Shown one piece after another: positions 1-28,639 of a DNA stretch of 32,790 nt. The stretch lies in assembly GCA_049999805.1 (NCBI GenBank), contig JBNGIO010005932.1, positions 1 through 32,790 on the forward strand, written 5' to 3'. This stretch comes from Folioceros fuciformis. Its lineage: Eukaryota. A model generated the notes under the pieces. The model was given only the letters and a program-made list of their open reading frames with translations, was not told where the DNA came from and made no database searches. Made by a program: the position numbers and the translations under genes. Each line of letters begins with the position of its first letter. The first letter of the stretch is position 1.

Positions 1-584
1 CTTCCCGCCCTTGCCTCAATTGCCTGCTCCCCTTCCCTCCCTGCCTCTGCCTGTGTGCTCTACTCCCTGCCTGCCTGCCTGCTTGCGTGCGGCTGCTGTT
101 GCGGCGTTGCATTGTAGCCTCCGTGCGAGGCTAGATTTTGCGTCTGCTTCTAGATTGCTGCGCGCCAGGCTCGGGTGTGTGGAAGGGAGGGAGACAAGTG
201 CAGGGTGCTGTGAGAGGCGCACTGTTGCCATTGAGATGTCAATTCTACTGGCTCTCACTTGAGAGCGTGCTGTTTAGGGTTTGATCCATGTGATTGCATG
301 CTCCATGTCCCCAGCGGGTGCATCCTTCTCTCTCAGCTGCTTGAGCGGGGGAAGCGGGTGAGGCTGGGTTTAATTTTCTGGTGGCTCGCCGACTCACCGG
401 AGGATGGGACCGTTTGTGATGCTTGAGCGTGGGGAGTGTGCTAGTGTGTCAGTCCGTCTTTAACATACCAGCTTGTTACACTGTGCATCTAGCGATGATA
501 CTTCCTCTTTCAGGCCAGGGAGCAGGCGCTGGAGCGGGAGCCACAGCCGCAGCCGGAGCAGGAGCAGTCAAGGCCTGCGTGGGG

Positions 585-6578
<5,994 letters not shown>

Positions 6579-8458
6579 TTTGCCCGCAACGTGCATGTCT
6601 TGTGCAACAAGCATATGCACTGACTTAAGGCTTGGCTGTTCAGCTTAAAGCTAGCACAATTTAGCTGGTTTAGGGGCTGAAGTCGCATCCGATCTACTCT
6701 AATGTTTCATGTAGTTTTTGAGGCGACTCGGGATCGTTCCAGTGTGAGAGGAGGCGGCCCTGGTACTGTCAGGATATATTGTTTTGGTACATAATTCTAG
6801 TTGGTTAGTTTTCCTAACTGATGATAGGTCTCTGGAAGTATAAGAGCTGAAGACATGATTCTCTTATCCTTCCACGCTGAGAACTGTGGACCAACTCGGG
6901 AAAAGTCTTTATGAACATGAACTGATAAATCGCATTCTACAGTGGTTAAGAGGGCATATTGTACATCTATGGACACAAGTGAAGCCTTGGAAGAGACGCA
7001 CATTGCTCTCTTCTCATCCCTCTTTTCGAATCTTGGAATAACAGTGGATGGTTTGCTCTCTTCCCTGTTTCTGCCTTAAGCTTGGGAGGTCTTTTAACTT
7101 TAGTTTTAGTTCCAATGTCAGCGCTTCGTATTGGCTTATTCCTTTTCGTTCTTTCTCTTGGTGCATCTATGCACTGTAGAAATGTAAAGTAGATAGCTAA
7201 CCCTGCTGATGTTGAAAATGTTTTCCCTCAGAAAAGTGGAGAAGGAAGGATGAGGAACGGATAGCGTAGCTGAGTTACACGCTTTATAGATGCATCACAT
7301 GGAACGGAGGCCTGATTAAATCGTTTTTAAGCTAGTGACCTGATCCATTTCAGCTATGATGCTTGTTTATCCCCACCTGTACAGACAAACAAAATGTATC
7401 GTCATGTCGAATACAGCATTGTAATCAAACCAACCGGTGCCTGTATTTTTCACAGCTGCGCATCTCAATAACTGTAAGCTCTGAATGGTTAATTCTTTCA
7501 ATCGTACGCGAAGAGAACAAATTAAATGTGGAATAGGTGAAAAACACTTGCCAAAGAACGTACGGGAAACAATCACCACGTGCAGCAAGTTGAAACGAAG
7601 TAACGGTAAATAGCCCGTAAACAACGGGCTTTTTTCATAAAAAATTTGAGGGAAAGTGATTTGTCCCACTAGATTCTTTGAAATGAATTTTTCTTTGTTC
7701 TTGCTCCTTATAGATGACTTTTGGTGTAAATATATTTAACTTAAAATAAAAATAAAAATGTCTTATCATTAGTAATAGAAGCTCTTTCTAATCTAGTGTC
7801 ACAAGAAGCTTTCCCACAAGTCTTTCATTTGCACTTATGATAATTGGAACAAGGAGGTTTGAGTGAGGACACTCATAGTAAATAGTTGTATTCCTATCTT
7901 AGAAAAAGACTTGTCTAGGTACATCTCTCTCCAACTTCATGTCCTTGTTATCTTGATGAAGAGACATACCACATTGTGCATTCTCGTAGGCTAGACCAAC
8001 TAACACAAAACTCTTATTCAATATACTACAACATGCTACCTATCACCTTGTTCCCACATGGCACATTCGTTCTTCACATCAACAATATTGGTTACGAGGT
8101 GTCCACACTTTTAACCCCAGCACAACGAAGTAACTAATATCAAGCTTCTTGTTAGGGATACCAATTACACTTATTTCCAATGCCCAAATTTCACATGAAA
8201 AGTGCATCATTATTATTAGAGCCTGTTGCATTACATGATGCTTCACTCCATTGCTGCTTCATTTTAGCAAGCATTTTCTCTCCTTGAAGCTTTGTTGACC
8301 CTCTATAGCCACTGCTGGAGGTAGCACCTTTAATTCAGTATTGGACTTGCCTCCTCCACCACCTCATCTTAATCAAGCAATGGTCATAGTTGTATGGGAC
8401 GAGCGGTAAAAAGGTAGCCCCTTTGGCCATAGTGCAAAATGTAAGCCTTACAAACGAA

Positions 8459-8560
8459 GATAAGATGTAGTTTCAATTGTATGCCATGGCTGACTTAGCC
8501 CAGTTGTGTGATAAGATGTAGTTTCAATTGTATGCCATGGCTGACTTAGCCCAGTTGTGT
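8459..8560. repeat. Perfect tandem duplication, 2 x 51 bp
   Basis: GATAAGATGTAGTTTCAATTGTATGCCATGGCTGACTTAGCCCAGTTGTGT occurs at 8459-8509 and 8510-8560. Confidence 0.95.
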
Positions 8561-9175
8561 AATTTTCTTGTCCATGTGACAGTGGTCATAATATGATGTG
8601 GGAGTAGATTAATAATGTAGGGTCATATTAATGCAATGGTGGATGGATTGAGTAATCCTAGCAAATTAATGTATTCTTTCTTCATCGCAATTTTGTCATA
8701 ATAATGACAACAAGTCATTGTAGCAAAGTTTGGAGAGTGTACTTCATTTTCTACTCTAGTAGATGCTAAGCTTGCACCAAGGAAAAAGACAAGAGCATAT
8801 CCCGGCAGGTATCATAGTTTTCATCTTTTTTTTATATAGGTAAATGGTTGTGGAGGTTTCAATGATGTAAAAGTTTTATAGAATATTAATTTATGCCAAA
8901 AATCTTCTGCTTAGTAACATACTTAAATAAAATGATTTATTCTTATGGCCCAAACACTCAAGAGTGAAGGATAGTGAAGAGTGCTCTTTCTAAGTTTCAG
9001 CACAACTCATGTTCGCTAGTCTATGATTTGTCTTCAAGAGCTAAAGCATCACAAGCCAATAGCCTCCAAGCTAAAGCTAGAACTACATAACCAAAAATAT
9101 ACATTAAACTACTTTTGAAAAATCTCAATAAAATGTATAGAAAAAACATTGCTTCCACATTTGTAGCCTACTATG

Positions 9176-9524
9176 TGTAGGGTTATTAAAGCCCAATGTG
9201 CTTAGACTAATGTGATTAGTCTAATTAGACTAATGTGATTAGTCTAATTAAACTAGTGTGATAAGTCTAATTAGACTAATGTAATTAGTCTAAGATTAGT
9301 GTTGAATTAAGTATCATTAGCTTAAGCTAATCTTTAGGAAGCTTCCTGTGAGCTTCTTGTGAAGCTTCCTTGGGAGCTTTTCTAGAGGGTATAAATACCC
9401 TCTTGAGCTCCCTTTGCAATAGAGCTGTGAGAGACTCTATGAGACCTCTCTTTCTCCTCTCCTCTCCTCTCCTCCTCCCTTCTTCTCTCCTCTCCTTCAC
9501 CATGCTCCTCTAATGATCGTTTCA
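9176..9524 (+). mobile_element. Solo LTR (349 bp) of an LTR retrotransposon
   Basis: Begins TG (TGTAGGG) and ends CA (GTTTCA). It is flanked by an identical 5-bp TSD CTATG at 9171-9175 and 9525-9529. An internal TATAAATA at ~9390 is followed by a CT-rich tract. Confidence 0.85.
9202..9293. repeat. 4 x 23-bp tandem array of palindromic units (TTAGACTAAT-GTG-ATTAGTCTAA) inside the solo LTR
   Basis: Units start at 9202, 9225, 9248 (degenerate) and 9271. Each has 10-bp arms around a 3-nt centre. Confidence 0.9.
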
Positions 9525-10179
9525 CTATGTGCTATGTAACTTTTGCGTAACAATTGGAAAGTTAGATTTTATAGATAGATTTGTAGATGAACACAAGTTA
9601 CCACATTCTAAAAAGATTAGCCTAAAAAGTATCCAAGACGATGCTATGAAAGCATAAGTGATAGTACAACATACGACATTATACAAGCATTGGAGAAATG
9701 CTGGCAAGGCAACCTTGATTATTAGCATCGAATTGTTTTTAAATGTTTCAAATGATTCAATGAATTCAAATTTCCATCCACAAGAGGGAGTTAATAATAC
9801 CTGTGTTCAAAGTAGTTTTAGAGACTTATGTTCCATCTATATGGATGGTTGTGAAGGCGTCACAAGGTTTATTTATGAGGTGTTAAAGTACAAAGTCAAT
9901 ATTTAAAAACCAAAACACAAATTATGGGATATATCATAGCACTAAAAGTTTGAACAACCATGTCTTTGTATTCAGTTGTCCAAATTTGAAGATGCACACG
10001 TCATTTCAAATAGCTCTTTCTTTCACCAAGTCTTTGTTATATTTTTTCTTATCTTCAACGGTTGGTTTCATAATGAAAGAACACATAACTGCAATATAAA
10101 TGCTATCAACTACCTTATCTAATTTGGCTTTATTAGACACACCCTCCCCTATCTTGACCTTCATGATCATTATGTCCTT

Positions 10180-11260
10180 TAGCTTAATTAACTTAGTTGT
10201 GTAGGTTGATATTAAGAATGTTGTTAACACGGTCTCCATAGTTGCTATCTTCTCCGAGCTCAAGAGTGTCTTCTCCGAGCTCAAGAGTGTCTTCTCCGAG
10301 CTCAAGAGTGTAAGAGGCCAATTGGCTCCTCTTATCCCTTTTATTCACTCCTTTTACAGCTCGACATCCAAGCTCTACTACCAACACGGCCCAGCCATTA
10401 AGGAAGGCTCACTTTTTTATTCAGCAACAAGAACAAGGCAAGGAGATCTGCTAGTGGGTACTCTTTTTGCAATTAGGTATTTTCACACGTTGTCTTCTAC
10501 TTCCTTAGCATTTCGAGCATGCGTTTTTCTATCCGGGTCTGATGACACTCATATTTTCGAGCAAGCAGTCATAGTTAAAGTAGCCTTTGATTTCAGCTTA
10601 GTCGACTTAGTTGTACAGGTTGATATAAAGTATGCTTTCAACATCGTCTCTAGAGTCACCATCTTCTACAATCTCAAGAGTGCAAGAAGCCAATTGGCTT
10701 GTCTCATCCCCTTTATCCGCTCCTTTTATGGATCGCCATTTAAGCTTTAATACCAACATGACCCAGCCATTGAGGGGGGTCTTGCGTAGACTTAGGCTTT
10801 CTTATTTATTGCCTTTGGAGGGTTGGACTTTTGGCTATGGAAGCCTTTGCCTTAGCTACCTTTCTTAATAGTTGGGCCCCTCTGAGCTCTAATGTTGGCC
10901 TTTCGTTTTCTGCTCCAAGATTCTTCTTTTCTTGAAGATTCTATTTTAGCTGTTGACAAGGACGTTTTCCTTTTATAGGTATCTTTTAGGCAAACGAGGG
11001 ACTCTTTACCTTTAGAGGTTCGAGAGGCACACCTTCTTTTCTAGAGAAGGATTGAGCAATCTTCATGCTTCCTTTCTGAAAAAGGAGTGTGGCTAAACTC
11101 TAAGAGCTCTTCTTTTGGATTCATCCATCTCCAGGTCATCTCGAGCTTGTATTTGCTCTTGTTTAGATAAAGGAGCGAGATCTTGGCTTTTGGCTCAACC
11201 TTGTGCCCATGCGTTTTGAATTGTACCAAGAACTTTCGTTATCACGATGAGATTTCACAT
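10180..11260 (+). mobile_element. Degenerate non-LTR retrotransposon reverse-transcriptase remnant with internal duplication
   Basis: Decayed RT motifs VDIK(N/Y)AFN..SR, TRQGDLL..TLFA (cf. GxRQGDPLxxxLF) and SDDTHI (cf. YxDD), with stops and frameshifts. Boundaries are approximate. Confidence 0.65.
10248..10311. repeat. 3 x 21-bp tandem repeat (TCTTCTCCGAGCTCAAGAGTG)
   Basis: Directly visible. It explains the SSEKTLL / LELGEDT repeats in spurious minus-strand ORFs. Confidence 0.9.
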
Positions 11261-12025
11261 AGGTTTGGCCTACACCTTGGATTTTTTTTTCTCTACATAT
11301 AGTTGTGGTGCGCTATTGTTGACATAGGGTTCCATATGGCATGTTGTCCTATGGGGGTATTGCATTGCTACCCATTATGCAGTTTTGGGATGTCATGTTC
11401 TCAATGTTTAGGGAATTGTGGGTTAATTGTCCATATACTTTGCGCAATAGGGTTTCACTTAAAGCGACCTTTTTTTTACTAGGGGGAATAAGTTTGTGTC
11501 ATTGATGTGGTTGATAATATCTCACTAGGAATTCAAGTTGCATCAACCCCTGGATAGGTGACTAAGGATTGTGCAAGTGCGTAAGTCCATAAGTATTCTT
11601 CTTTGCAAGATGGACATTTTTCATCCACCTTGTGCTTCAAACCCACAAGGCCATGGGCAAGTTTCAAGTTCATCAAGGAGTGGGCAAAGGAGTGGGCAAA
11701 GGTGTATCATAATTTTAAGAATGAGGTTCTTTCTCTTCTCTATATCTCTATGATAACGTTCTTTGCAAAAGAGCATTGGTCAATGTAGTTTTTAGAAAAG
11801 CATCAAGCAAGAATTAAGCAACTCCTTCGCCATTGGTGGTAGGTAGGCCTTTTTTATTCACATCACTATATTTTGGGAGTGTTTGAAGGGGGGGGGGGGC
11901 AACTATCCCTTTTGACCACTACTTAGTTTGTTTTGCTATTTTTTAGGGTTTGCTTAAATTATTCCTGCTAGTTTTAGGGTTGGATACCACGTTGTTCTAG
12001 ATCGAAGTGATGTGATGCATAGTCT

Positions 12026-16324: not shown

Positions 16325-16516
16325 ATGGCGGACTTGTACAGGCACAAGCCTGCCGTCTCACGGATGGTGATGGAGCCCTCACCTCTCACCCTGTGCCATC
16401 GTGCCCGCCTCTTGCTCTCTTCACCGCCATCTCCTCGTACAGTGCACGAGAAGATGCCTCCTCCACGCATTGTGCGAAGGAGAGAAAAGGAGGAACTGGA
16501 CTCCTTCCTGCTCTGA
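16325..16516 (+). CDS. Candidate small ORF, 63 aa (MADLYRHKPAVSRMVMEP...RRREKEELDSFLL), unknown function
   Basis: ATG with +4 G (CTCATGG) after a pyrimidine-rich leader, and protein-like composition. No recognised homology. Confidence 0.3.
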   Translation: MADLYRHKPAVSRMVMEPSPLTLCHRARLLLSSPPSPRTVHEKMPPPRIVRRREKEELDSFLL

Positions 16517-16666
16517 AATGTGGCTGCCTCTACCTTCCTCCACTGGACGCTACTGTTGTGTGCTGTGACGGGGGAATAATGTTGTAGATAAAGACATGCC
16601 TTGTCTGAGTATGTACATCGGAGAAGAAGTGTGCAAAAAATCTCATCTGACAGACGGATAGCTAGG

Positions 16667-18064
16667 CTACAAGTACTGCTTGACGGCGTCCCTGAGGCTG
16701 GTCTTTTTCTTTGCTCTTGGCTGCACAGTGGGATCCGGAATTGCAGCGTTGCTTGCCGCATCCCTTGCAGAGGGAGGAGGAGCCGGAGCCGTAGCCTGGG
16801 TGGTGGTGGTGGTGCATTGCGTGGAGTCCACGCTTCGGTCTGGCCTGAATGCTGGCAGGAACATTCCCAGCATGTCATCAATCCCCGTCTCCGTCATCTC
16901 CCCTCTGGTAGTTGGGGTTCGGGCTTCGGGCAGCACTATTGCGGTAGGGTCGCTCACTTGCTCCACAGTAGCTGCTGGTACGGGGGTATATTCTGCTGCC
17001 GGAGGGCCCTGACTCAATATGCCTTGACTCAACATGCTTCGCCACTGGCTTGAGGAGAACATGGACGTCGATTTCTTCTTGTCTTTTAAGGGAGAGTCTG
17101 GCTTGGGTCGAACTTCCTCGCGGTCCAGCTCGTCGTCCTTCATACTCGTCTTGTTCTCGTCCAAGTGCTGCGTGTGAAAACAGTCAGCTATTTCCTTGTA
17201 AGGTATTCCATGAAACTTAACACGGGGAGGACATTGCTTGGAGATGTATGGTTCTGTCTTGTGAGCCGGTACCTGCTGAGCCAAATTGAATAAATCATCC
17301 GATGTTAAATGCAGCCCCTTCGATTTGGGCACTTCCTTCTCTAAGTGCTCGCTTTCTTCCTCTTGAATCAGCTTTCTCGGCTTCCCGCCCTTCTTGGTTT
17401 CTGGAGGTTGTGCTACAGTTTCTCCCTCAGCTTCATCATGGCCCCTCCGAACATTTTCCTCTTGTTGTTGGAGCCCGCTTGACCTGCTTCCTCTCTCAGG
17501 TTCTTCAACCACAGCAGCCTCTTTGGACACATTTCTCACTGCTTCTTTTCCAAAATATCTCAAAATACCACCAGGGCGTGCGTCATGAACCTCGTCCTCC
17601 TCGGCTTTGCCCTTTCTTCTCAACCTTCTTCCACTGTGCCGTGCAACATGCACCTCCTCGTCTTCCGGGTTCAAGTCCTCTTCTGGACTCTCCCTGCCTC
17701 TCCTGCGTTCCTTAGCTGCCGTGTCCCCTTGAGCATCCTCGTCGGAGACTGCTTCACCCACCTCGGCATCTTCCTCAATTTTTACACCTTTTCTGCCTCT
17801 TGGTCGTTGGGGTGCAGGTGGTGGCTTTCTAGCTGCTGTTCCCCGCTTCCGGCTTTTAGGGGATTTCTCCTTATCCTCTCCGGTACCTTCCTTCCGTTTG
17901 GGAGACTCTAGCATCCACGCTGGCAGAACCCTGTACTTGGCAGCAGTATGCAGAGCCTCGGCACTTAAAGCAACAGGAGGCTCCAAGTCGTTCACCTCCT
18001 CCTCTGCTGCAGGTTTGGCAGACAATGTCCCTGATTCCACAGTGGTGGCCTGCACTTTCTTCTG

Positions 18065-18106
<42 letters not shown>

Positions 18107-18675
18107 GGCTCGGCAAGTAGGGCCTCCTCCATCCTTTTCCAATTTCAATACCTGTCGTCATATTGTGCAAACACCTGCATCTGATTCAGGTAGTGCATTC
18201 ACAGAAATCACTGCCGTCAACAAGGAGCCAAAGACTAACACCAACAGTAACAACAAGGGCAGATGCTTACCTCCTCGACACGCTTCAACAAAAGTGCAAC
18301 GACGTGTTTACATAACGCTGCCTTCGTTGCTGCAGGGCAAGAGCACTGTGCAGATGGAGACGCAGACGAGTTCAAATTGATGGTGAAGCTCAGCTGGTAA
18401 TTGTCGCCTGGACTTGAGCCTGGAAAAGAAGGGGAGAAGCTTATCAGCCAAGGCAGAAACTCAGAGCAGCCAACTCATTCCAGCATATGCAATGAGCATC
18501 CCAAGCCTGAAGAGTAAAAGGGCGTACCCTCACACATCCCTTTCCCTTCTTCCAACGCCTCTCCTTCGAAGACAACGTTCTGCAGCTTGGCTGATGTCAG
18601 AATCTCTCTGGCTCGTTTGAAGGTGACATCCGGCACTAAAGCCTTCACCGATGCTACGGATCCAAACTTTGACAT
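16667..18675 (-). CDS. SWIM zinc-finger protein with long disordered region and Ku-binding-like motif, ~558 aa; exons 18675-18528, 18419-18271, 18151-17273, 17167-16667
   Basis: The spliced N-terminus reads MSKFGSVASVKALVPDVTFKRAREIL...GMCEGSSPGDNYQLSFTINL...AQCSCPAATKAALCKHVVALLL (CxC-x8-CxH, SWIM). Phases join into the 493-aa ORF. It contains KYRVLPAWML and ends KKKTSLRDAVKQYL. Confidence 0.85.
18066..18106. repeat. (GCAGAC)n hexanucleotide microsatellite encoding an Ala-Ser repeat
   Basis: About 6.5 copies, in frame within the SWIM gene (ASASASASASASAQ). Confidence 0.95.
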
Positions 18676-19154
18676 CCTTGCCCTACCCTTGGCAAGAGCC
18701 CCTGATTACCCCTGTCTCTCTTCACTGGAAGTCATCGAACTATACGACAACGATATAATCCTGTTGCGTCTAACTGCCTCCGGCTCCTGAACAACTTCTC
18801 AAGACACGAGCACAATACATGCAGTGTAGTCTAAAACGTTATCAGCACTTAAACTCCACAAATTTTCGTTGTCGTACCAGCTCTCGCGTTTGCTTGAAAG
18901 ACGACAAGCTGGTGATTACCTGAGAAGAGGCAGGTCCGCAGTGGCGCAGTGGCGCAGCCGGCTCCCGTCATAGTGTGACAACCGCAAGATCACAACTCAA
19001 CTCGAGATTCTCGATTTTTGTTACTCCAGTCAACTGATTGGATGACATTTATTTTGGGAAAGGGTTTCTAGGTGGTGAGCTCTGACCCCGTTGACGGACG
19101 TTGCAAGCGCAAACCGAATTGTGCCAAGCACTGTTGGGTCTGGAGTCATCGGAG

Positions 19155-21010
19155 ATGGCTGCGCCTGATTTAGCGTTCGTTGAAGATAGGCAGCGACGGG
19201 AAGAAGTATCAAGACGTGCTCCGAGAGGGAAGCGTGATGCAGCAGCCGGTGCCTTTTACAGTCATGATTTTGATTGGGAGTCCCTTTGTGCGGAAGTCGA
19301 GAGCAAGGGCTTCCATGAAAGTAGGCAATCGCGCTCTGGCTCGCTTCGTCACGTGCCTTCCATGTGTGTGCTCGCCGTCGCTGAATTTGACTGTTTGACG
19401 TGAGCTGCACTCTGAGAGAAGTGAGCGTGTACTCAGGCACTGACAGCATGGAGATAACAGCTGAGGAAGACAACACTAGTGAGGAGCTTTTGAGGTCAAC
19501 AGCGTGGGAAGCATTTTACAGGCGTCATTCCAATGCTCTGTTCTTTAAGGTGGAAAAGAACCCGTCACTGTGATGTAGTTCTGGTACATGTGGGTGTGCC
19601 TCTTACCGGGTTATGCCCACTGGTGTTGAGCAGGAACGGAGGTATCTGCTGAAGGAATTTCCTGAGCTGAACAACGCAGCAAACCCCCTTTCAGTTCTTG
19701 AGATAGGATGTGGAACTGGTGGCTCCGTGGTTCCGATCCTGCGGTAGGCAAGTATGTTATGTGCTGCTGTTGTGAGTTTTCAGATGTTTCTGTTCCTTAG
19801 AACAGGGAAGGTGCGTGAGGTTAGCCTGTTCCACAGGCGAGCCTCACGCAGACTTGGTTCCCACTTCCAGAGTCTTACAGACATGGATGCTGTTGGCCAG
19901 GGGTAATGATTCTGCCCATGTTTATGCCTGCGACTGCAGTCCAGCTGCTTTGGAAAAGGCCACGGCCGTGGTTCGCAATGAAGCCGGTCTTCTTAACCAG
20001 CAAAGCAGCCGGTTCTTTCCATTTTGTTGTAACCTCTGTGTCCAACAGCTTCCTAGCTGGCTCTGTTGCAGTGCTTGCCAGGCCTCCTTTCAGATGCCAC
20101 CTGTCGCATTTTTGCCGCACGGTGTGGAAGTTCAACAGCCCAGATGTAAGGAGGTTGCCTTGTTACGTTGCCAGACAAAAGGGTCAGGTCAGTCTCCACA
20201 ATCAGCTGTCATGGCAGCAGAAAATTCTGCTGAAGGCTCACAAGGGGAGAAGGAAGGAACTCAGCCTGTAGAAGTGACAACTTATGTACCTCCGTGTGTT
20301 CAGCAGGGCACAGTATGTTGCCTTGGAGGAGTTGATATAGTTACCATGGTAAGCTTGCTCTCTCTCCATGGTTGTCAAGACTGCGGACCCCCTTTCTGTT
20401 GCTAATGGACTTACGTTGATTTACCCTTTGCGAGAGCAGATTTTCACTTTGTCTGCCATGCGTCGGGAGAGTATGCCCTTTGTCTTGAAGGAAACATTTA
20501 GAGTTATGAAGCCCGGAGGACAACTTTTCTTTCGAGACTATGGTAAGCTGACCAATGCTTTCGTCTCATGCATGCTTACCACGCAGTGGCCTGACTTTGT
20601 CACAAGTCCAGGAGGTGCAGTTTCCTTGTTTCTTTATTTAAAGTAGTCACGTCGTTCTCGGTTTCAGGTTTGTACGACATGACGATGTTAAGATTTCCCG
20701 CGTCTCAAAGGATTGGGAGCTGTCTATATCAACGCATAGATGGGACTCTATGCTACTATTTTTCATGCGAAGCTCTTAGAGACCTAGCGACTGGTGCTGG
20801 CCTTGTTGAGGTGAGATGTGGGCAGTCATCTGGTGGCATTTTGGTGTTTGTTGCTTTCATAGTTCCTGATTACATCGCCGGCGTTCACAGGAGGAACTCT
20901 ACTTCTGCTGTGTGCAGTTGATGAACCGCAAAACACAAAGTCCGATGAAACGTGTCTGGATTCATGGCAAATTTCATAAGCCAGCATCGGCGGTAGAACA
21001 ACCATGCTGA
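19155..21010 (+). CDS. tRNA N3-methylcytidine methyltransferase, METTL6/METTL2 (Trm140) family, ~400 aa; exons 19155-19320, 19437-19549, 19634-19743, 19901-20348, 20440-20542, 20668-20810, 20891-21010
   Basis: Motifs include AWEAFYRRHSNALFFK|ERRYLLKEFPEL, SAM motif I VLEIGCGTG, VYACDCS, IFTLSA, KPGGQLFFRDYGLYDMTMLRF, YQRIDGTLCYYF and NRK...MKRVWIHGKF. Introns are GT-AG and in phase. Confidence 0.93.
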
Positions 21011-21262: not shown

Positions 21263-24200
21263 TTACAGCCGGACTGTTGTTAACAGTTCTACCACCTCTT
21301 TCATGCTGGGCCTATCTCGAGGATTCTCTCGGGTACACAACAACGCTATCTTGAAGACCAAGGCCATCTCGTGTTGATGCGCAGAGTGGTCCCTGCTGCC
21401 ATCAACTTCAAATAGACGGGGATCCAGGATCTTGATTGGACCCCTCCGCGAAGCACCCGATGTAGAGGCAGCCTCAGCGTAATCTGATGCCCAGCCCACA
21501 ATGTTCACTCCCTTCTCGATGAAGCTGGTGTCCATGGGCGTCTTGCCCGTCAAGAGCTCGAACAGGACTACCCCGAAGCTGTATACATCACTACGATCTG
21601 TGATCTTCATAGTGAAACAGTACTCTGGTACAAAACAAGTCCCAGGCATGAGTCAGTTCGTAGCCAACGTTGGAGGAAGAGATGAGGGGGAGATGAGGAG
21701 GACTTTTACCAGGAGCAATATAGCCATAGGTGCCTGCGATGCTCGAGAATGTTGCAGCGCTCCTCTCAGGGTCTGTTTCGATAAGTTTGGCTATTCCGAA
21801 GTCGGTGACCTTAGGTTCCATATTTGCATTCAGTAATATGTTGTTGGACTTGACATCGCGGTGAACGATAGTGGGCCGGCAATCGTTGTGACAATAAGAA
21901 AGTGCCTGCGCTGTTCCCAGTGCTATCTTGAATCTGCGTCGGGTGCATTCGATCATGTTAGAACGTCACACTCAGAGGCTAGTGCCAGAATTCGGAGTTG
22001 GATAAAGTTGGTACCGTGCATCCCAATCCAGATGCTTGATGCCGATTTCTGAGGGCTTGCCATGAAGAAGATCACCAAGACTGCCGTTAGGCATGTACTC
22101 GTAGATGAGGTAGCTCACATCTCCAGCCCTGGAGAAGCCTAGCAGCTTTACGATAGACTTGTGCCTGATCCTTCCCGCAGTCTTGATCTCAGTCATATAG
22201 CTCTCGTACATGGCTAAGGCGGCTCTGGAACTGCTGGCTGCACTGCCGAGTCGTATCTTCTTCACCGCTACGACGTCCTCTGTCTGTGGCAAGACAATCC
22301 TGTAGACTACGCCGGAAGCTCCTTGTCCCACAATGTTATCGTCAGTGAGCTGTTTTGCGACTTCCCCGATGAGGTGCGGAGGGATGGCTTGGGTGAAGCT
22401 GAAGGCGACCTCTTTCTCTTCCGATGACAACCCGTTCCAGCTTGAGGGTTTGAGCAGCACGCCTCTGGAGTAGCATCCTCCTCGGATGCAAGCCACAATG
22501 CAGACGACGAGGCCAAGCAACAGAATGCAGCAACCCAATATGATGCCCACCAATGCACCCGTACTTAATCTGGAAGCACAAAAGACGGACAGCCTGGATG
22601 TGAGCAAGGCTGCCTTTGTGCTAATTGAGTGTGAATTTGGAACGATCAAAAGCAGCAGATGGCTAGGTGCTGAGATGAACCTGTTATGACTTGAGGGAGC
22701 TGAAGGAGCTGAAGGAGCTGAAGGACATGGAGGTGCATCACACAGCGGTCGCAAGGCACCACCACTGAGGCCAGGGTTCCCCACAAATGCGGAGGAGCCA
22801 AACCTGGAGGAGTTCGAGGGAAGAGAGCCACTGAGGTCGTTGTAGGATACATTCAGGTTCAGGAGACTCGGTGAATCGACAAGTGCTTGAGGAACTTGTC
22901 CTGTACGAGCATTCGGCTAATTAGCACAAAGGTACACTCAAATTGCGTGGGATCATACGTGCTGTGTGTTCGTACCGGAAAAGTCGTTGTAGGACAGATC
23001 CAACGACTCTAAACGCAAACTGCTCCCGAACGCAAGCGGAATTGCTCCTGGAAGTGCAACCAAAAAGGTCAGTATGATGAATCCTAGCATTTATACAGTG
23101 AGTTAGACATTCCCACAGAGGTAGACCCTATGAAGATAGAAGGCACACCCGATAGATTGTTGTGGGATAGATCCAAGTCCCTAAGACTCAGCATTTGAAC
23201 AATTGCGTCAGGTATTTCTCCTGCAAACTCATGCGACCTGAGGAGGTCAGGACAGCGAAGTAGTGCCAGCTTTTCGGAACTACCCTCACAAAGAAGTCTG
23301 AAAGGCAGTAGTTAGCACACGAGCACCACCTGTGATAGCATTGTTGGAGAGGTCAAGGTCCACAAGAGCTGTCAGCTTTTGTAGCAATGTCCTTGGGATT
23401 GTTCCTGACAGTTGGTTGAAGCTAAGATTTAATCCGATTTGCAGAGTTGATGGAAGCTGGGCAGGTAGAGGCCCACTGAGCTCATTTCCAGCCAGACTCA
23501 GTTGAAGGAGCTGCTCGAAGAAGCGAATTCCAGGACAGCAGATTAGTATGGCTGTCAGCCCAAATCAAAAGATCCATACTGTTAGGATCCAACCGTGCAA
23601 AGATAGACATGATCACCTTCTGCAGACCACCAAGTTGAGCTGGAATGCCATCGGAAAACAGATTGTCGTGCAGGAGCAGGATATCCAAGTTTTGAAGATT
23701 ACCAAGTTCTCCCGGGATATTGCCGTCGAAGGAGTTCTTGCTAAGATCGAGCGTCACCAAGCCAGTGCAGTTTCCTATCTCTTTCGGGAGCTCTCCCGCT
23801 AGGGCATTTCCTGAGATGTTGAAAAAGCCCAAGTTTTTGAGTCGCTGTATCTCAGGAGGAAGGGTCCCGTTCAGGTTGTTGCCCTCTAGTGTAAGCCTTG
23901 TAAGGTTTGAAGCCTGGGTGAGAGAAACCTGGAACGGGCCAGTTATCCTGTTTCTGTCCAGCTCCAGGTAGTTCAAGGCGGGGAGACGACTCCCAAAGTC
24001 TGAGGGTATGCCTCCTTCCAACGAGTTGCCCCCCAGATTGACCCGGTACAGCGACGAACAGTTGGACAGCTCGGGGGGAATAGTGCCATTGAGCTGGTTG
24101 TCACTGAGGGTCAGGTTGATGAGCATTCCTTTCGCACACAAGGTGCCAGGAATAGGACCCTCCAGTAGGTTGCTGTCTAACGAAAGGGCTGACAAGGGAC

Positions 24201-26712
24201 AATTCTTTCCCAAATCTGCAGGGATTCCTCCAGACAGCTGGTTTGCACTCATCAAGACGACTTGTAGCGATGTCATGTTTGCTAGGCTAGGTGGGATAGG
24301 CCCTGCCGTTAAAAAGATACACAAATCAACATGAAACTGCAAACTCCTCAACTGAAAATGGGGAAGCCAGTGGAGTGGAGTACACAACTTACCTGAGAGA
24401 TTGTTGTCGCTCAGGAACAGATAGTTGAGGACGGTACAGTTGGCCAGAGAGTCGGGTATGGGGCCTGTCAAATTGTTGGTCCACAGAATCAGAAATTGAA
24501 GGTTCTGCAGTTTCCCAAGCTCAGGAGGTATGGTTCCTGTCAGTTGATTTTTGTACAGATTGATGATTTGAAGACTCTGTAAGTCACCGAGTTGGGGGGG
24601 AATCGGTCCGGAGAGAAGGTTGTCGTAAAGGTTCAAGCCCGTAAGGTCTGCAAGGAAGACATCGCGTGGCACAACCTTTTACGGGAGGTCTCCAACAAGG
24701 CGGCACATGAGATCATCCGAGAAGCAGAAGGACATGACAAGGCACAACCTCATGAAGAAACTCACTTTGCAGGCTGCCTAGAGATGGTGGAATGCTGCCT
24801 GTCAACTGGTTCCCAGACAGATCTAAGTAGACCAACTGCGAGCAGTTCCCCAGAGACGCTGGAATCGTGCCAATGATCTTGCCGTTGGAGTTACATTCGA
24901 ACTGTAGCAAAGACGCGGCATTCCCAATTTCCGAAGGAATGATGCCTTCAAGGTCGTTTGAAGATACATCCAGGGCTAACAGCATGCTACCTTTTCCAAA
25001 AAGCTCAGGCGGAATGATGCCTGTGAGCTGATTCGCAACAAGAGACAAAGTAGTGAGAGTCTGGAGGCTGCCGAGCTCGGGAGGTATTGCTCCAGTGAGT
25101 TGGTTACCGCCAAGAAATGCGCTGGTAAGGTACTGCAGACGAACATAAACATTTTTGTTAGGATCTGTTGTTTCCAACCAGAGAAGAAGAAAGGTCGGCA
25201 GAGAATTCGGCTTACAGGGAAGTTTGGTAGCAATGAGAGATCCCCTGTGAAGGAATTGGAAGAAATATCGAACTGCGTTAACGAAGTAAGACCACTTAAA
25301 GTAGCTGGCAGAGGGCCACTTAATTGGTTCGAACCGACAACTAAGTTCGTGAGCTGTTTAAGGTTCCCGTACTCAGATGGAATTCCTCCTGTGAGGCTAT
25401 TCTGTGAAACGTCCAGAACCTGGTGAAAATTCAGGGGTGAGATGTCTGCCATAGGGAGCTCATATCGTGATTTCCCACGGAAGAATACCCCACACCATGG
25501 TACCTGGAGTTTGGACAGTTTTCCAAGTGATACGGGCAGGTTGCCATTGAGGGCACAAGAAAATAGGGTAAGCTCTTGCAGCTGCGATAGGTCTCCCAAC
25601 TCTTCCGGAATCGGACCTGAAAGAGTAAGATACAAGGATTCAGCATTCTTCGGAGTGCTGGAGCAACTGAATGGACCAGAAGCCTGGAAGCTTCATGGAT
25701 ATTGAAGACATTCAACGTGGTGAAATGTGTAACGCTCGTCTGGACTGCACTGCCAGCGCCAGATTTAGACTATGCAGCAAATAGCATCAAGTACCTGTCA
25801 AGAGATTGGTGTCCAGATAGAGGATGGTCAGATTTTTGCATCGGCCAAGGTCCTTGGGGATGATTCCATCTAGCTGATTCTCGTACAGGATCAGCTGCTG
25901 CAAGCCCGTCAGATTGCCGAGCTGTGGTGGGACAGATCCTGTAACCACAATTTCGAGAAACGGGATGAGCCAACGGAATCGCAGCCCTCACCTGAGACTG
26001 CTGTAAGGCCTTCTTCACCTTCAAGTCCGTTGTGACTAAGGTCGAGCGTTAAAAGATTGCTCAGGTTTCCCAGCTCAGGTGGAATAGACCCAGAAATGAC
26101 ATTGGTCCCAAGGATCAAATACTGAAGCAGACTAAGCCGTCCAAGTACTGGTGGGATGGGACCTGCATGCCCAGAGCGGTAAACTAAAATTACCAGCATG
26201 CGGATGGCAGACACGTGGAAGTGTATGGAAGGGCTTCGTTTCCTATCCCGCTACGCTCATCACAATCGGATAGCTGAAGACCCAAATTTCCGCCGGGTAC
26301 CTGAGACGTTATTGCTAGACAAGTCTAGCTGTTTCAAGGCTTTGCACTGTGCTAAATCCGCCGATATTTGGCCCACGAGAAAGTTGTTTGACAAGCTGAG
26401 ATTCTGAAGGGCGGGCAGCCTGGCAAAGCTGGAAGTAGTAAGATTGCCCACAAGTTGGGCTTTCGACAGTTGCACAGACACCACCTGCTTCTGTCCGTTG
26501 CAGCCCACTCCGTTCCACTTGCAAGGGGTGGCATCTGATTTCTTCCAGTTGGCCACCGCGCCCAGAGGATCAATTGTGATCCCTTGCTTGAAGCTAAGCA
26601 AGCTGAGTCCATCCCGGGACAATCCTGTGGCTGGGGGCAAGTTGTTGGCGAGCAGAAGCAGGACCCAGAGGACCAGCACCCAAGGGCTGATGAGCCCATA
26701 TGACCGTGGCAT
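21263..26712 (-). CDS. LRR receptor-like kinase (RD kinase, subfamily XI-like), ~1336 aa, 15 exons: 26712-26301, 26162-26019, 25938-25795, 25616-25504, 25419-25216, 25132-24766, 24647-24393, 24302-23617, 23510-23330, 23220-23149, 23047-22976, 22900-22681, 22569-22015, 21933-21710, 21624-21263
   Basis: Signal peptide [22 protein letters not shown] and N-cap CKWNGVGC precede many 24-aa plant LRRs. These are followed by a C-cap GNPGL and a TM segment [25 protein letters not shown]. The kinase has [25 protein letters not shown] and [11 protein letters not shown]. Exon lengths sum to 4011 nt, in frame. Confidence 0.95.
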
Positions 26713-28639
26713 GGTGCTCAGGCTCACGTTGAGGCACCACCTCAGAGTCGATCACACCGCTGTCTCAATGCGCCTGTTGAATGCAAAGGACTCAAACTTT
26801 CACGACAGCGGTTCCCAATCGGCCCCAGCATCGTAGTGGGTGGCTTGCAAGCCAAGAGGCGATGGAAACGGGCACACAGTGAACAGCACCCGAACTCGTG
26901 CACCTCGCGGAGCTTTTTGCATCAGCTTCATGAGAGAGGGCTCGTCCAGTAGGCAAAACCCCTGCACCCTTCAGCACAGTCCGGGAGCTCAGGATGCGAC
27001 AACGAAAACTTCGAGCATCGACAGCGGACGGGACTTGATATGCCCTGGTTCCCTTGCCCCTTCCTATTTTTTTGGAGTGGGTTGCAGTAGAGCCTGATGG
27101 ATGAATCACGCCGATTGACCCGCCCTGGACGGTGGTCCGTCGGGGCATGCGGACAAGGAAGGCCAGCCAGAGACCACTGACCGCCCTGCTCCTATCCAGT
27201 GCCGACCGTCGCATTTTGCGGCCATATACTGTACTGACCTGCGTTCACACTAACACCTTCTAGTGAATACCGACACTGCCGGAGTTGGTCTTCCGGTCAA
27301 GGTGCTCCGCCACAGTCATGTCCATTTCTGGCGAATGAGAGACAGGACCGACAACGCGCAATGGCCGCATCTGGTCAGGTTGAATTTGAAAACGAGTTTC
27401 CACCTGTTTCTCGAAATTCCCTCCCTACGGCCGTGAGCCCACGCTTAAGCGTTAAGTGTCCACTATATCCGTCGTGGCAGAGGTTGCGATAAAAAATGCC
27501 TGCAGCTCGTCACGTGTGGGAAAGGTAGAAAAGATGTTGACTTCCACGGACTTCAAGATCCCATCGGACCTGGACTGCCGGGCACCAACAATGCAGCCAT
27601 ACCATGTGCAAGCTGGTCATCCTATTGGCATCAGGAGGAGGCCGACTTCCGCAATCCCGGTGCTTATTCAAATAAAAGGCAGACCCTAAGGCACATGATG
27701 CAATGCTGAGGATGGCAGGAAAAGCACGTGCATGATGTGGAGTCGGAAAAAGTGCCACTTTCACCCTGATATGAAGGTCTCGTGGGAAGCTTCGCGAGCT
27801 TTCGAACCGTTCAACTGCTTAGAAGCTGAAAGGCTGATAAGCCTGTTTGATTTCTGGCCTGGCAGGAATTAATGTGACACGAAAAGTCCAGCAGCGTTTG
27901 GCACAGGGTCGTCGTCCTGCAACACTGAAATCCAGCAGCAGCATCTTACCAGCTACTAATCTCCTATAGCGTAATACTTGACAACGAAATCTCGTGCTCT
28001 CATTCATGGCGGTCGATAGAAACCAAGCAACCAGTCAATTGCCTGCGCGGACTTTCTAAGTCATTTCGCCCAAGTGGCACAAATTCGATCTGGTGTCACC
28101 CGTCCGGTTTGCGTCTGGGCTCAAGCAGCAAGCTTTCTTCTATAGCCAGGCAAAATTGTAGTGCTAAAGGATTGGGTGAAAGCAGCTGCAAAGCAGCGTT
28201 GACCTGTGGCCAATGGCGTCAAGTCCCTCATGATATGTTCTCTTGACTTCAAAGACAAGAGAATTTGCAAGGGAGAGACTTATGTTCATCACATTGTCAT
28301 TAGACTAGTATATGTATGTCCTCACTTTCGACAATCTAACCAAAAAGCTCATCACAACAATGCCTTGATGTCCGCATTGGCATGTCCAATGATCGTGAAG
28401 CGGAGCGTGGAGATTGGAGAATGCATTGCACTCAAAATCAGCTCACAAATCGCAAATTGATGTGGAGCCCTACGATACAAACGGTAATAATACGTGTTCC
28501 TGTAGACAGCTTCCTAATCTGTGTGTCTTACTTTGAAGATTTCCTTTTACACTTGGAAGTCGGTCACCATACAAACTCGCACGATGCAGAGCCTGAACAT
28601 CCTACCGAAGAAGGAGAGGCCGATCTGCACGATGCGGAG

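Follow-up and report, generated by a model that had tools for sequence, protein, structure and literature searches.

A gene joining a SWIM zinc finger to a long tail

We analysed a 32,790-nucleotide (nt) stretch of Folioceros fuciformis DNA (contig JBNGIO010005932.1 of assembly GCA_049999805.1; hereafter the window), whose minus strand carries, from position 18675 to 16667, a four-exon gene with a spliced coding sequence of 1677 nt that translates into a 558-residue protein. The protein begins with a SWIM zinc finger module and continues into a long charged tail that harbours R-V-L-P-A-W-M, a look-alike of the short motif by which the end-joining factors APLF and MRI (also called CYREN) bind Ku80. 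An original prediction, made from the letters of the DNA, had read the gene as encoding a CYREN/MRI-like scaffold and as a candidate plant adaptor for non-homologous end joining (NHEJ); the motif strings and the SWIM finger that it had placed here were all recovered at their coordinates.

The ATG at 18675 lies just downstream of an in-frame stop codon (18708-18706), and the three introns, of 108, 119 and 105 nt, are all bounded by GT..AG (3/3; exons in Table 1). We checked the splicing by aligning contigs of four public runs (X1, X3, X6 and X7) to positions 16400-19100, with the limits that the material consists of assembled contigs, not reads, and that the RNA or DNA kind of each run is a guess: X3 (same organism) and X7 (a relative at roughly 90% identity) are guessed to be RNA, and X1 (possibly the source of the window) and X6 are guessed to be DNA. 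Contig joints in X3 and X7 exactly remove the three predicted introns, at 17167/17273 for intron 3, at 18148-18149/18268-18269 for intron 2 (equally cut two to three places on, i.e. 18151/18271) and at 18418/18527 for intron 1 (equally cut one place on, i.e. 18419/18528). Each of the three removed segments has CT..AC on the plus strand and hence GT..AG on the strand of the gene. All four exons are joined in record 20 of X7 (1830 nt), and exon 3 is joined to exon 2 in record 12 of X3, so that the predicted junction between the SWIM exons and the exon starting at 18151 is borne out by transcript-like contigs, whereas none of the three joints occurs in the X1 or X6 contigs. X3 also contains unspliced contigs, with record 10 running across intron 3 and record 13 across intron 1. 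In the region encoding the tail, X7 differs from the window by insertions (12 and 30 nt) and deletions (3 and 15 nt), all of them multiples of three, as expected of coding sequence.

Intron 3 (17168-17272, 105 nt) is in frame and free of stop codons, such that the open reading frame (ORF) continues through it. All orthologues are gapped at the 35 residues that it would encode, which provides independent support for this intron, and the residues of exon 1 align with the N-termini of fern proteins (see below). This is thus a real gene, spliced and transcribed in two organisms (with the RNA kind of the runs guessed, as above), and we regard both the splicing and the fusion of the SWIM module to the tail as secure.

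Several side observations concern intron 3 and the start of exon 3. X3 holds one spliced and one unspliced contig at intron 3, and in P0012, a Joint Genome Institute (JGI) model, translation continues through an intron at the corresponding position; retention of intron 3 would add the 35 residues inside a conserved central helix block. The public Adiantum models P0001 and P0003 end in read-through residues directly after L-V-N-L-A-T-E, at the intron 3 position, and the C-terminal half of the protein is annotated as a separate gene, P0011, on the same 927,737-bp contig as P0003. Since the Adiantum models break at this position, the orthologue is split or truncated in those annotations. Near its start, exon 3 contains a perfect hexanucleotide repeat that is lineage-specific, being in none of the fern orthologue rows, and that draws unrelated contigs in all four runs, causing a depth spike of 163-214 with many loose ends.

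Fern relatives and the SWIM module

Searching with the 50-residue SWIM exon against longer proteins returned seven matches at an expect value (E) of up to 0.01 among 56 candidates, with 58-67% identity. A profile built from four full-length matches and the exon pieces of the window then retrieved 13 proteins at E up to 0.001 from 8000 scored candidates. All named matches belong to polypod ferns (Adiantum capillus-veneris, A. nelumboides, the laboratory fern Ceratopteris richardii and, by accession, Pteridium aquilinum), the remaining ones being transcript-like contigs and one JGI record, and annotation of the fern proteins goes no further than 'hypothetical protein' or 'SWIM-type domain-containing'. 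No seed-plant, bryophyte, algal or non-plant protein was among the matches, but the search scored only candidates sharing 5-residue words, and absence outside ferns is therefore not shown. In the proposed plant adaptor, 'plant' stands for ferns only, as far as the matches obtained so far go. The window protein shares 27.6-31.4% identity with seven full-length relatives, which makes it the most divergent member seen.

Searches with the 496-residue tail ORF came back empty, both in a word-indexed search (nothing at E up to 0.001 out of 8000 scored candidates) and in an exhaustive phmmer run against 1.84 billion representatives (0 matches); the tail is too divergent and compositionally biased. 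Against the sequences of the PDB at E up to 10, the family profile found nothing significant; its best match was the SWIM of ZSWIM8 (E 2.2), and matches to V-ATPase subunit G at E 5-6 reflect charge-bias noise.

The SWIM assignment itself, which the original prediction had put at the N-terminus, is well founded: exon 2 matches Pfam PF04434 with 27.7 bits, above the curated cut-off of 19.6 (E 2e-06), the C-x-C-x9-C-x-H signature corresponds to residues 75-88, and its four Cys/His residues are kept in 8/8 full-length rows. In an AlphaFold2 model of the Ceratopteris orthologue P0005, residues 14-119 form a helix/four-strand/helix module (block pLDDT, the predicted local distance difference test, of about 50-64). 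An ESM Atlas model of residues 1-125 of the orthologue superimposes on SWIM modules at the N-termini of bacterial SWIM and SNF2-helicase proteins, with template modelling (TM) scores of 0.66-0.70 by query over 98-111 residues. A feature search in the ESM Atlas with the same 125 residues returned exclusively SWIM-bearing clusters (scores 0.87-0.90), which we treat as leads only, and the same type of search with the whole protein gave no usable match.

Plant SWIM fingers are mostly of transposase origin, and the gene could accordingly be a remnant or domesticated piece of a MULE/FAR1-type transposase with no dedicated function. We reject this origin, which we consider extremely improbable, because no MULE or FAR1 domain was found (Pfam, E up to 1) and the position of intron 3 is shared with the fern orthologues. 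On the three ORFs that contain the exons, PF04434 was the single Pfam family detected at that threshold, with no FHA, MULE, FAR1 or other family, transposase families included. In addition, the finger sits N-terminally behind a beta-sheet module, as in bacterial SWIM proteins, the orthologues share motifs along with the intron at 28-31% identity, and the gene is transcribed and spliced in two organisms.

The finger reads C-K-H-V-V-A and thus has an Ala following the His according to the pattern C-K-H-x-x-A. We take this Ala to be typical of SWS1/Shu2, and SWIM proteins of the small-module type are described as acting in recombination, so that the gene might encode the fern counterpart of SWS1/Shu2, with the SWIM binding a RAD51 paralogue and promoting homologous recombination and the tail being a lineage-specific extension. 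However, C-K-H-x-x-A is also common in generic SWIM fingers, and the family profile retrieved neither yeast Shu2 nor an SWS1 chain from the PDB sequences at E up to 10, despite the published structure of the Shu complex. Moreover, in structure the N-terminal 125 residues come closest to the bacterial SWIM/SNF2-helicase modules, and the window protein is about four times longer than SWS1, going by the length that we assume for the latter. An SWS1-like function is therefore improbable in our view, and even when taken together with the transposase remnant it carries little weight.

A conserved Ku-binding-like motif in a predicted disordered tail

Approximately 460 residues outside the SWIM module are predicted to be disordered. 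The tail, scored as 459 residues, contains 16% K+R, 17% D+E, 8.5% Pro and 17% bulky hydrophobic residues, and its mean identity to the window residue across the relatives drops to 0.21, compared to 0.53 over the N-terminal 99 residues. Against this background only four conservation islands emerge in the tail with a 7-residue window and a threshold of 0.6: residues 172-179 (Y-R-V-L-P-A-W-M), 379-394 (L-H-L-T-S-D-D-L-F-N-L-A-Q-Q-H-L), 487-496 (G-I-D-D-M-L-G-M-F-L) and 544-552 (A-K-K-K-T-S-L-R-D). A fifth block, K-K-K-x-x-[IM]-F-S-x-x-x-W, was recognised by eye; the whole protein has two Trp residues, and both reside inside conserved blocks. K-K-K-x-S-L-[KR]-D is kept in every row extending to the C-terminus (10/10).

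The AlphaFold2 model of P0005, computed from a shallow 12-row alignment (mean pLDDT 46.2), places short helices exactly on conserved blocks, at residues 335-351 (the central block, block pLDDT 81-86), 385-394, 450-461 and 516-524 (the C-terminal helix, pLDDT 77-86). By contrast, the region of the Ku-binding-like motif (158-247) is predicted with pLDDT below 50 and has no secondary structure. A Foldseek comparison of the model with the PDB returned nothing at E up to 0.001, the top rows being meaningless for such a model. On the strength of these predictions the protein would consist of a small, folded SWIM module of about 100-120 residues and, behind it, a long linker bearing short linear motifs.

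The Ku-binding-like motif stands out from the rest of the tail, with an identity of 0.62 over residues 172-179 versus 0.21 for the tail as a whole. R-[VI]-L-P-x-W is kept in 9/10 homologues that reach the region, at an overall identity of 28-31%, which upholds the conservation that the original prediction had anticipated among orthologues. Seven proteins are counted as R-V-L-P-S-W (P0001, P0005, P0007, P0008, P0009 and P0016, together with P0003, in which Thr replaces the Ser), whereas P0004 has R-I-L-P-S-W and P0006 R-V-L-P-C-W. Only P0002 lacks the motif; this A. nelumboides model of 251 residues has an unrelated N-terminus and departs from the others directly behind N-N-Q-R. We regard the conservation of this motif as secure.

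The minimal core of the APLF-type Ku-binding motif (A-KBM) is R-x-x-P-x-W (Grundy et al. 2016, PMC4831024), and the window sequence R-V-L-P-A-W has this core, including Pro and Trp. The peptides tested in that study comprise MRI-A, with T-R-V-L-P-S-W-L-T, WRN-cA, with R-R-L-P-V-W-F, and WRN-nA, with R-K-C-P-E-W-M (PMC4831024), and the fern R-V-L-P-S-W is identical at 6/6 residues to the core of the tested MRI peptide. Of the two reference strings that had been invoked for the comparison, RVLPSWL of MRI thus lies within a tested peptide (PMC4831024), whereas RKRILPTWML of APLF occurs in no text consulted. The hydrophobic flanks likewise correspond: V-L precedes the Pro and M-L follows the Trp in the window, and the ferns have [VI]-L before the Pro and I, V, M or F after the Trp. 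Across species a Met prevails right after the Trp, where it confers a more than 30-fold gain in affinity in MRI, with APLF also having a Met (M190; 10.64898/2026.07.22.740027), and by sequence comparison the W-M of the window is the high-affinity form described for MRI/APLF. In 20000 shuffles of the 459-residue window tail, R..P.W arose in 215 and R[VIL]LP.W[MLIVF] in 1. Judged by its letters, the motif securely matches the A-KBM core and the extended pattern of the tested peptides, and as such is indistinguishable from validated A-KBMs.

Possible docking on Ku80 and alternative partners

In human Ku80, the groove mutations L68R and I112R abolish A-KBM binding, as does mutation of the Trp in the motif (PMC4831024). 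The human groove is also lined by D106 and D109, which face the Arg of the motif, and by Q119 close to the Trp, and a peptide seated in it is seen in PDB entry 6ERF. The MRI motif is disordered and folds upon binding the von Willebrand A (vWA) domain of Ku80, and MRI also requires a multimerisation region (10.64898/2026.07.22.740027). Ku80 of Chloroplastida has a vWA domain. From the conserved motif we infer that the protein binds Ku80 and is a plausible Ku adaptor, a reading to which we assign a probability of roughly 0.45. R-V-L-P-A-W-M would most likely dock in the hydrophobic groove of the Ku80 vWA domain, like the APLF, WRN and MRI/CYREN motifs, and this docking would bring the protein to Ku-bound DNA ends, with a presumed role in end joining. 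The remaining blocks, namely the central amphipathic helix, K-K-K..[IM]-F-S..W, D-D-M-L-G-[LM]-F and the basic-hydrophobic C-terminal helix, might contact additional partners, a second site on Ku or the protein itself, and the SWIM module may contribute a zinc-dependent contact with protein or DNA.

Two of these blocks are candidate XLF-like motifs (X-KBMs). In an XLF-like motif a conserved Phe comes after a basic patch, as a rule at the very C-terminus, and known examples end in G-L-F-S (XLF, WRN-X) or I-F-F-S (MRI-X; PMC4831024). X-KBMs are helical and end in Ser where P-type Ku-binding motifs (P-KBMs) have Asp (10.1101/2023.12.12.570754). The C-terminus of the family, KKKTSLRDAVKQYL followed by the stop codon in the window (16711-16667), has a basic patch and a predicted helix ending in [YF]-L-x, with Y-L in the window and [YF]-L-G/S/N in ferns; the aromatic residue near the end is Tyr in the window and Phe in 2/9 fern rows. 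This C-terminus therefore resembles a basic patch with a terminal aromatic residue loosely and lacks the F-S ending. The internal block (K-K-K-G-S-I-F-S in ferns and K-K-K-S-T-S-M-F-S in the window) fits the letters of an XLF-like motif better and lies about 125 residues from the end.

Several points weigh against Ku docking. The strict XLF-like motif is lacking, because the C-terminus does not have [LIF]-F-S and the F-S block is internal. The basic residues upstream of the core Arg are thin: the window has a single Lys at -2 (A-A-K-Y-R) and the ferns have a single Lys or Arg at -1 (N-Q-K-R), forming a patch that is weaker than that of WRN-cA (E-R-K-R-R) and similar to that of MRI (K-T-R). More than 600 human proteins carry the R-x-x-P-x-W core, of which only a handful have been validated, according to Grundy et al. 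(PMC4831024), and the bare core on its own thus means little. The finding was also selected from a very large scan, so that among the many conserved motifs this one may resemble an A-KBM by chance. The searches described above detected the family nowhere outside ferns. Finally, the available text of the literature joining the Ku-binding motif with Arabidopsis shows no plant A-KBM, and, as no plant A-KBM, APLF-type or CYREN-type factor is described, the use of this Ku80 site by plants is unproven.

Alternatively, the protein could be a SWIM-anchored disordered scaffold whose motifs bind partners other than Ku, such as chromatin, transcription or ubiquitin-ligase proteins, in which case the likeness to Ku-binding motifs would be coincidental. 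The abundance of the bare core in human proteins and the lack of a plant A-KBM precedent in the literature at hand both speak for this scenario. So does the fact that the single, non-significant PDB profile match, ZSWIM8, is a substrate receptor of a cullin ligase, and that the four conserved blocks other than R-V-L-P-x-W fit no verifiable motif class. On the other hand, a coincidence would have to extend beyond the core, to 6/6 residues of the tested MRI peptide in seven fern orthologues and to the W-M in the window. It would also have to yield an extended motif that appears once per 20000 shuffles and to combine it with basic-plus-aromatic terminal motifs that fit the layout of known Ku adaptors. 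Such a non-Ku scaffold is a serious possibility to our minds, though one on which we would not bet.

Other candidate motifs in the tail were considered and set aside. The Polypodiales orthologues P0003-P0009 and P0016 have S-D-S-Q-A-T-E, containing an S-Q site, around window residues 140-160, and an acidic serine cluster, E-S-D-L-S-E-E-D-E, around window residues 355-365, both of which are absent from the window protein. Reading the former as a functional S-Q site and the latter as a CK2 site or FHA ligand is unsupported, as these blocks are present in the Polypodiales rows and missing from the window protein. Nor is there support for taking the F-F and F-S blocks as RIR-, PIP- or MIP-type motifs, and the F-F block as it stands in the window has no F-F.

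Features of the locus and its surroundings

Table 1. Exons, conserved blocks and the repeat of the SWIM gene (positions within the window)
Feature	Positions	Strand	Description
Exon 1	18528..18675	minus	Residues 1-49 plus 1 nt; N-terminal part of the SWIM module (VKALVPD..FKRA block)
Exon 2	18271..18419	minus	SWIM zinc finger; C-x-C-x9-C-x-H at 18345-18304, then V-V-A
Exon 3	17273..18151	minus	293 codons; charged tail, predicted disordered, including the Ku-binding-like motif
Exon 4	16667..17167	minus	166 codons plus stop codon (16669-16667)
Hexanucleotide repeat	18066..18106	minus	6.8 copies, perfect; Ser-Ala run at the start of exon 3
K-Y-R-V-L-P-A-W-M-L	17909..17938	minus	APLF/MRI-type Ku80-binding-motif look-alike; residues 171-180, core R-V-L-P-A-W at 173-178
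Amphipathic helix block	17162..17314	minus	LTSDDLFNLAQQ then HL, split by intron 3; island 379-394
K-K-K-S-T-S-M-F-S-S-S-Q-W block	17042..17080	minus	K-K-K-G-S-I-F-S-x-x-G-W in ferns; holds the second Trp
I-D-D-M-L-G-M-F-L-P block	16853..16882	minus	Island 487-496; helix 450-461 in the P0005 model
K-K-K-T-S-L-R-D-A-V-K-Q-Y-L	16670..16711	minus	C-terminal block; K-K-K-x-S-L-K-D-K-V-x-x-[YF]-L-x in ferns

Elsewhere in the window, the minus strand bears at about 21972-26836 a multi-exon gene for a leucine-rich repeat (LRR) receptor-like kinase, with LRRNT_2, many LRRs and a protein kinase domain. On the plus strand, a 1403-codon ORF (420-4631) has a PB1 domain (69.5 bits) as its sole Pfam match. 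Together with the short GT..AG introns, the kinase gene and the PB1 ORF point to a land plant. Also on the plus strand, a short ORF (19574-19747), divergent from the 5' end of the SWIM gene, contains an L-E-I-G-C-G-T-G-type methyltransferase motif, with Pfam matches below the cut-offs (15.1 bits versus 27) that give a weak lead to a neighbouring methyltransferase gene. The region 8001-12000 is AT-rich, with a GC fraction of 0.36-0.40 compared to 0.49-0.56 elsewhere, contains few long ORFs and may be intergenic or a repeat.

Relation to known systems and significance

MRI/CYREN (human C7orf49) is a disordered Ku adaptor with an N-terminal A-KBM, a multimerisation region and a C-terminal XLF-like motif. 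The fern-family protein parallels this layout in having the core R-V-L-P-S-W (ferns) or R-V-L-P-A-W (window) in predicted disorder, a conserved central helix and a conserved basic-plus-aromatic helix at the extreme C-terminus. Unlike MRI/CYREN, it has a SWIM module ahead of the tail, its motif is located around residue 173 and not N-terminally, and its C-terminus is [YF]-L-x versus I-F-F-S in MRI. The window protein is presumably also about 3.5 times as long as MRI. Homology to CYREN was not detected by Pfam on the 496-residue tail ORF at E up to 1, by the protein searches or among PDB sequences. No sequence relationship of the family to non-fern proteins was detected in these searches, and 'CYREN/MRI-like' denotes an analogy of motif layout only: the parallel in motif layout drawn in the original prediction holds, but a strict XLF-type C-terminus is lacking. 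The family detected in ferns would thus have a CYREN-like motif architecture, yet it is outside the CYREN family.

With APLF, an end-joining scaffold with PBZ and FHA domains and the first protein to define the Ku-binding motif, the window protein shares the combination of a zinc-finger module and a long disordered region with R-x-x-P-x-W, acidic stretches in the tail and the Met after the Trp (M190 in APLF), but it has a SWIM finger and no FHA was found (Pfam, E up to 1). Its likeness to the N-terminal modules of bacterial SWIM/SNF2-helicase proteins comprises the C-x-C-x(n)-C-x-H signature and the TM scores given above, whereas no helicase or enzymatic domain follows the SWIM and the gene is an intron-bearing eukaryotic one encoding a linear-motif tail. 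SWS1/Shu2 (ZSWIM7) similarly has a small SWIM module with C-x-H-x-x-A and would share a link to DNA repair, but the profile matched no chain of the Shu complex and the window protein is much longer.

In the full-text literature, the motif strings were found in Grundy et al. 2016 only. The plant PAXX preprint reports APLF orthologues only in some multicellular, non-plant lineages and lists APLF and CYREN as limited to non-plant lineages. According to the same preprint, the known end-joining proteins of plants are essentially the core factors, a PAXX-like factor having been reported only recently, and a PNKP-like protein of sea urchin is fused to a CYREN-type motif. The latter fusion indicates that the Ku-binding motif moves between scaffolds in different lineages. 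A disordered adaptor with a Ku-binding-type motif anchored to a SWIM module would be new, in a plant lineage for which no such adaptor is described.

A more far-reaching reading, which we deem unlikely, is that docking of an A-KBM on the Ku80 vWA domain is not an animal invention, and that ferns, perhaps along with more plants, have a SWIM-anchored adaptor with multiple Ku-binding motifs replacing APLF, CYREN and XLF-type factors. Such an adaptor would combine the A-KBM with the internal X-KBM-like K-K-K..[IM]-F-S and the C-terminal basic-aromatic helix, and would bridge or regulate Ku at DNA ends; its wider spread in plants is perhaps hidden by the fast divergence of the tail.

If the protein does dock on Ku, it would be the first A-KBM adaptor for plant NHEJ, the Ku80 interface would be either ancient or reinvented, and the gene would offer a handle on end-joining efficiency, of use for gene targeting and genome editing. 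Should the motif have another partner, the family would still represent a conserved and uncharacterised SWIM scaffold whose linear motifs are clearly defined.

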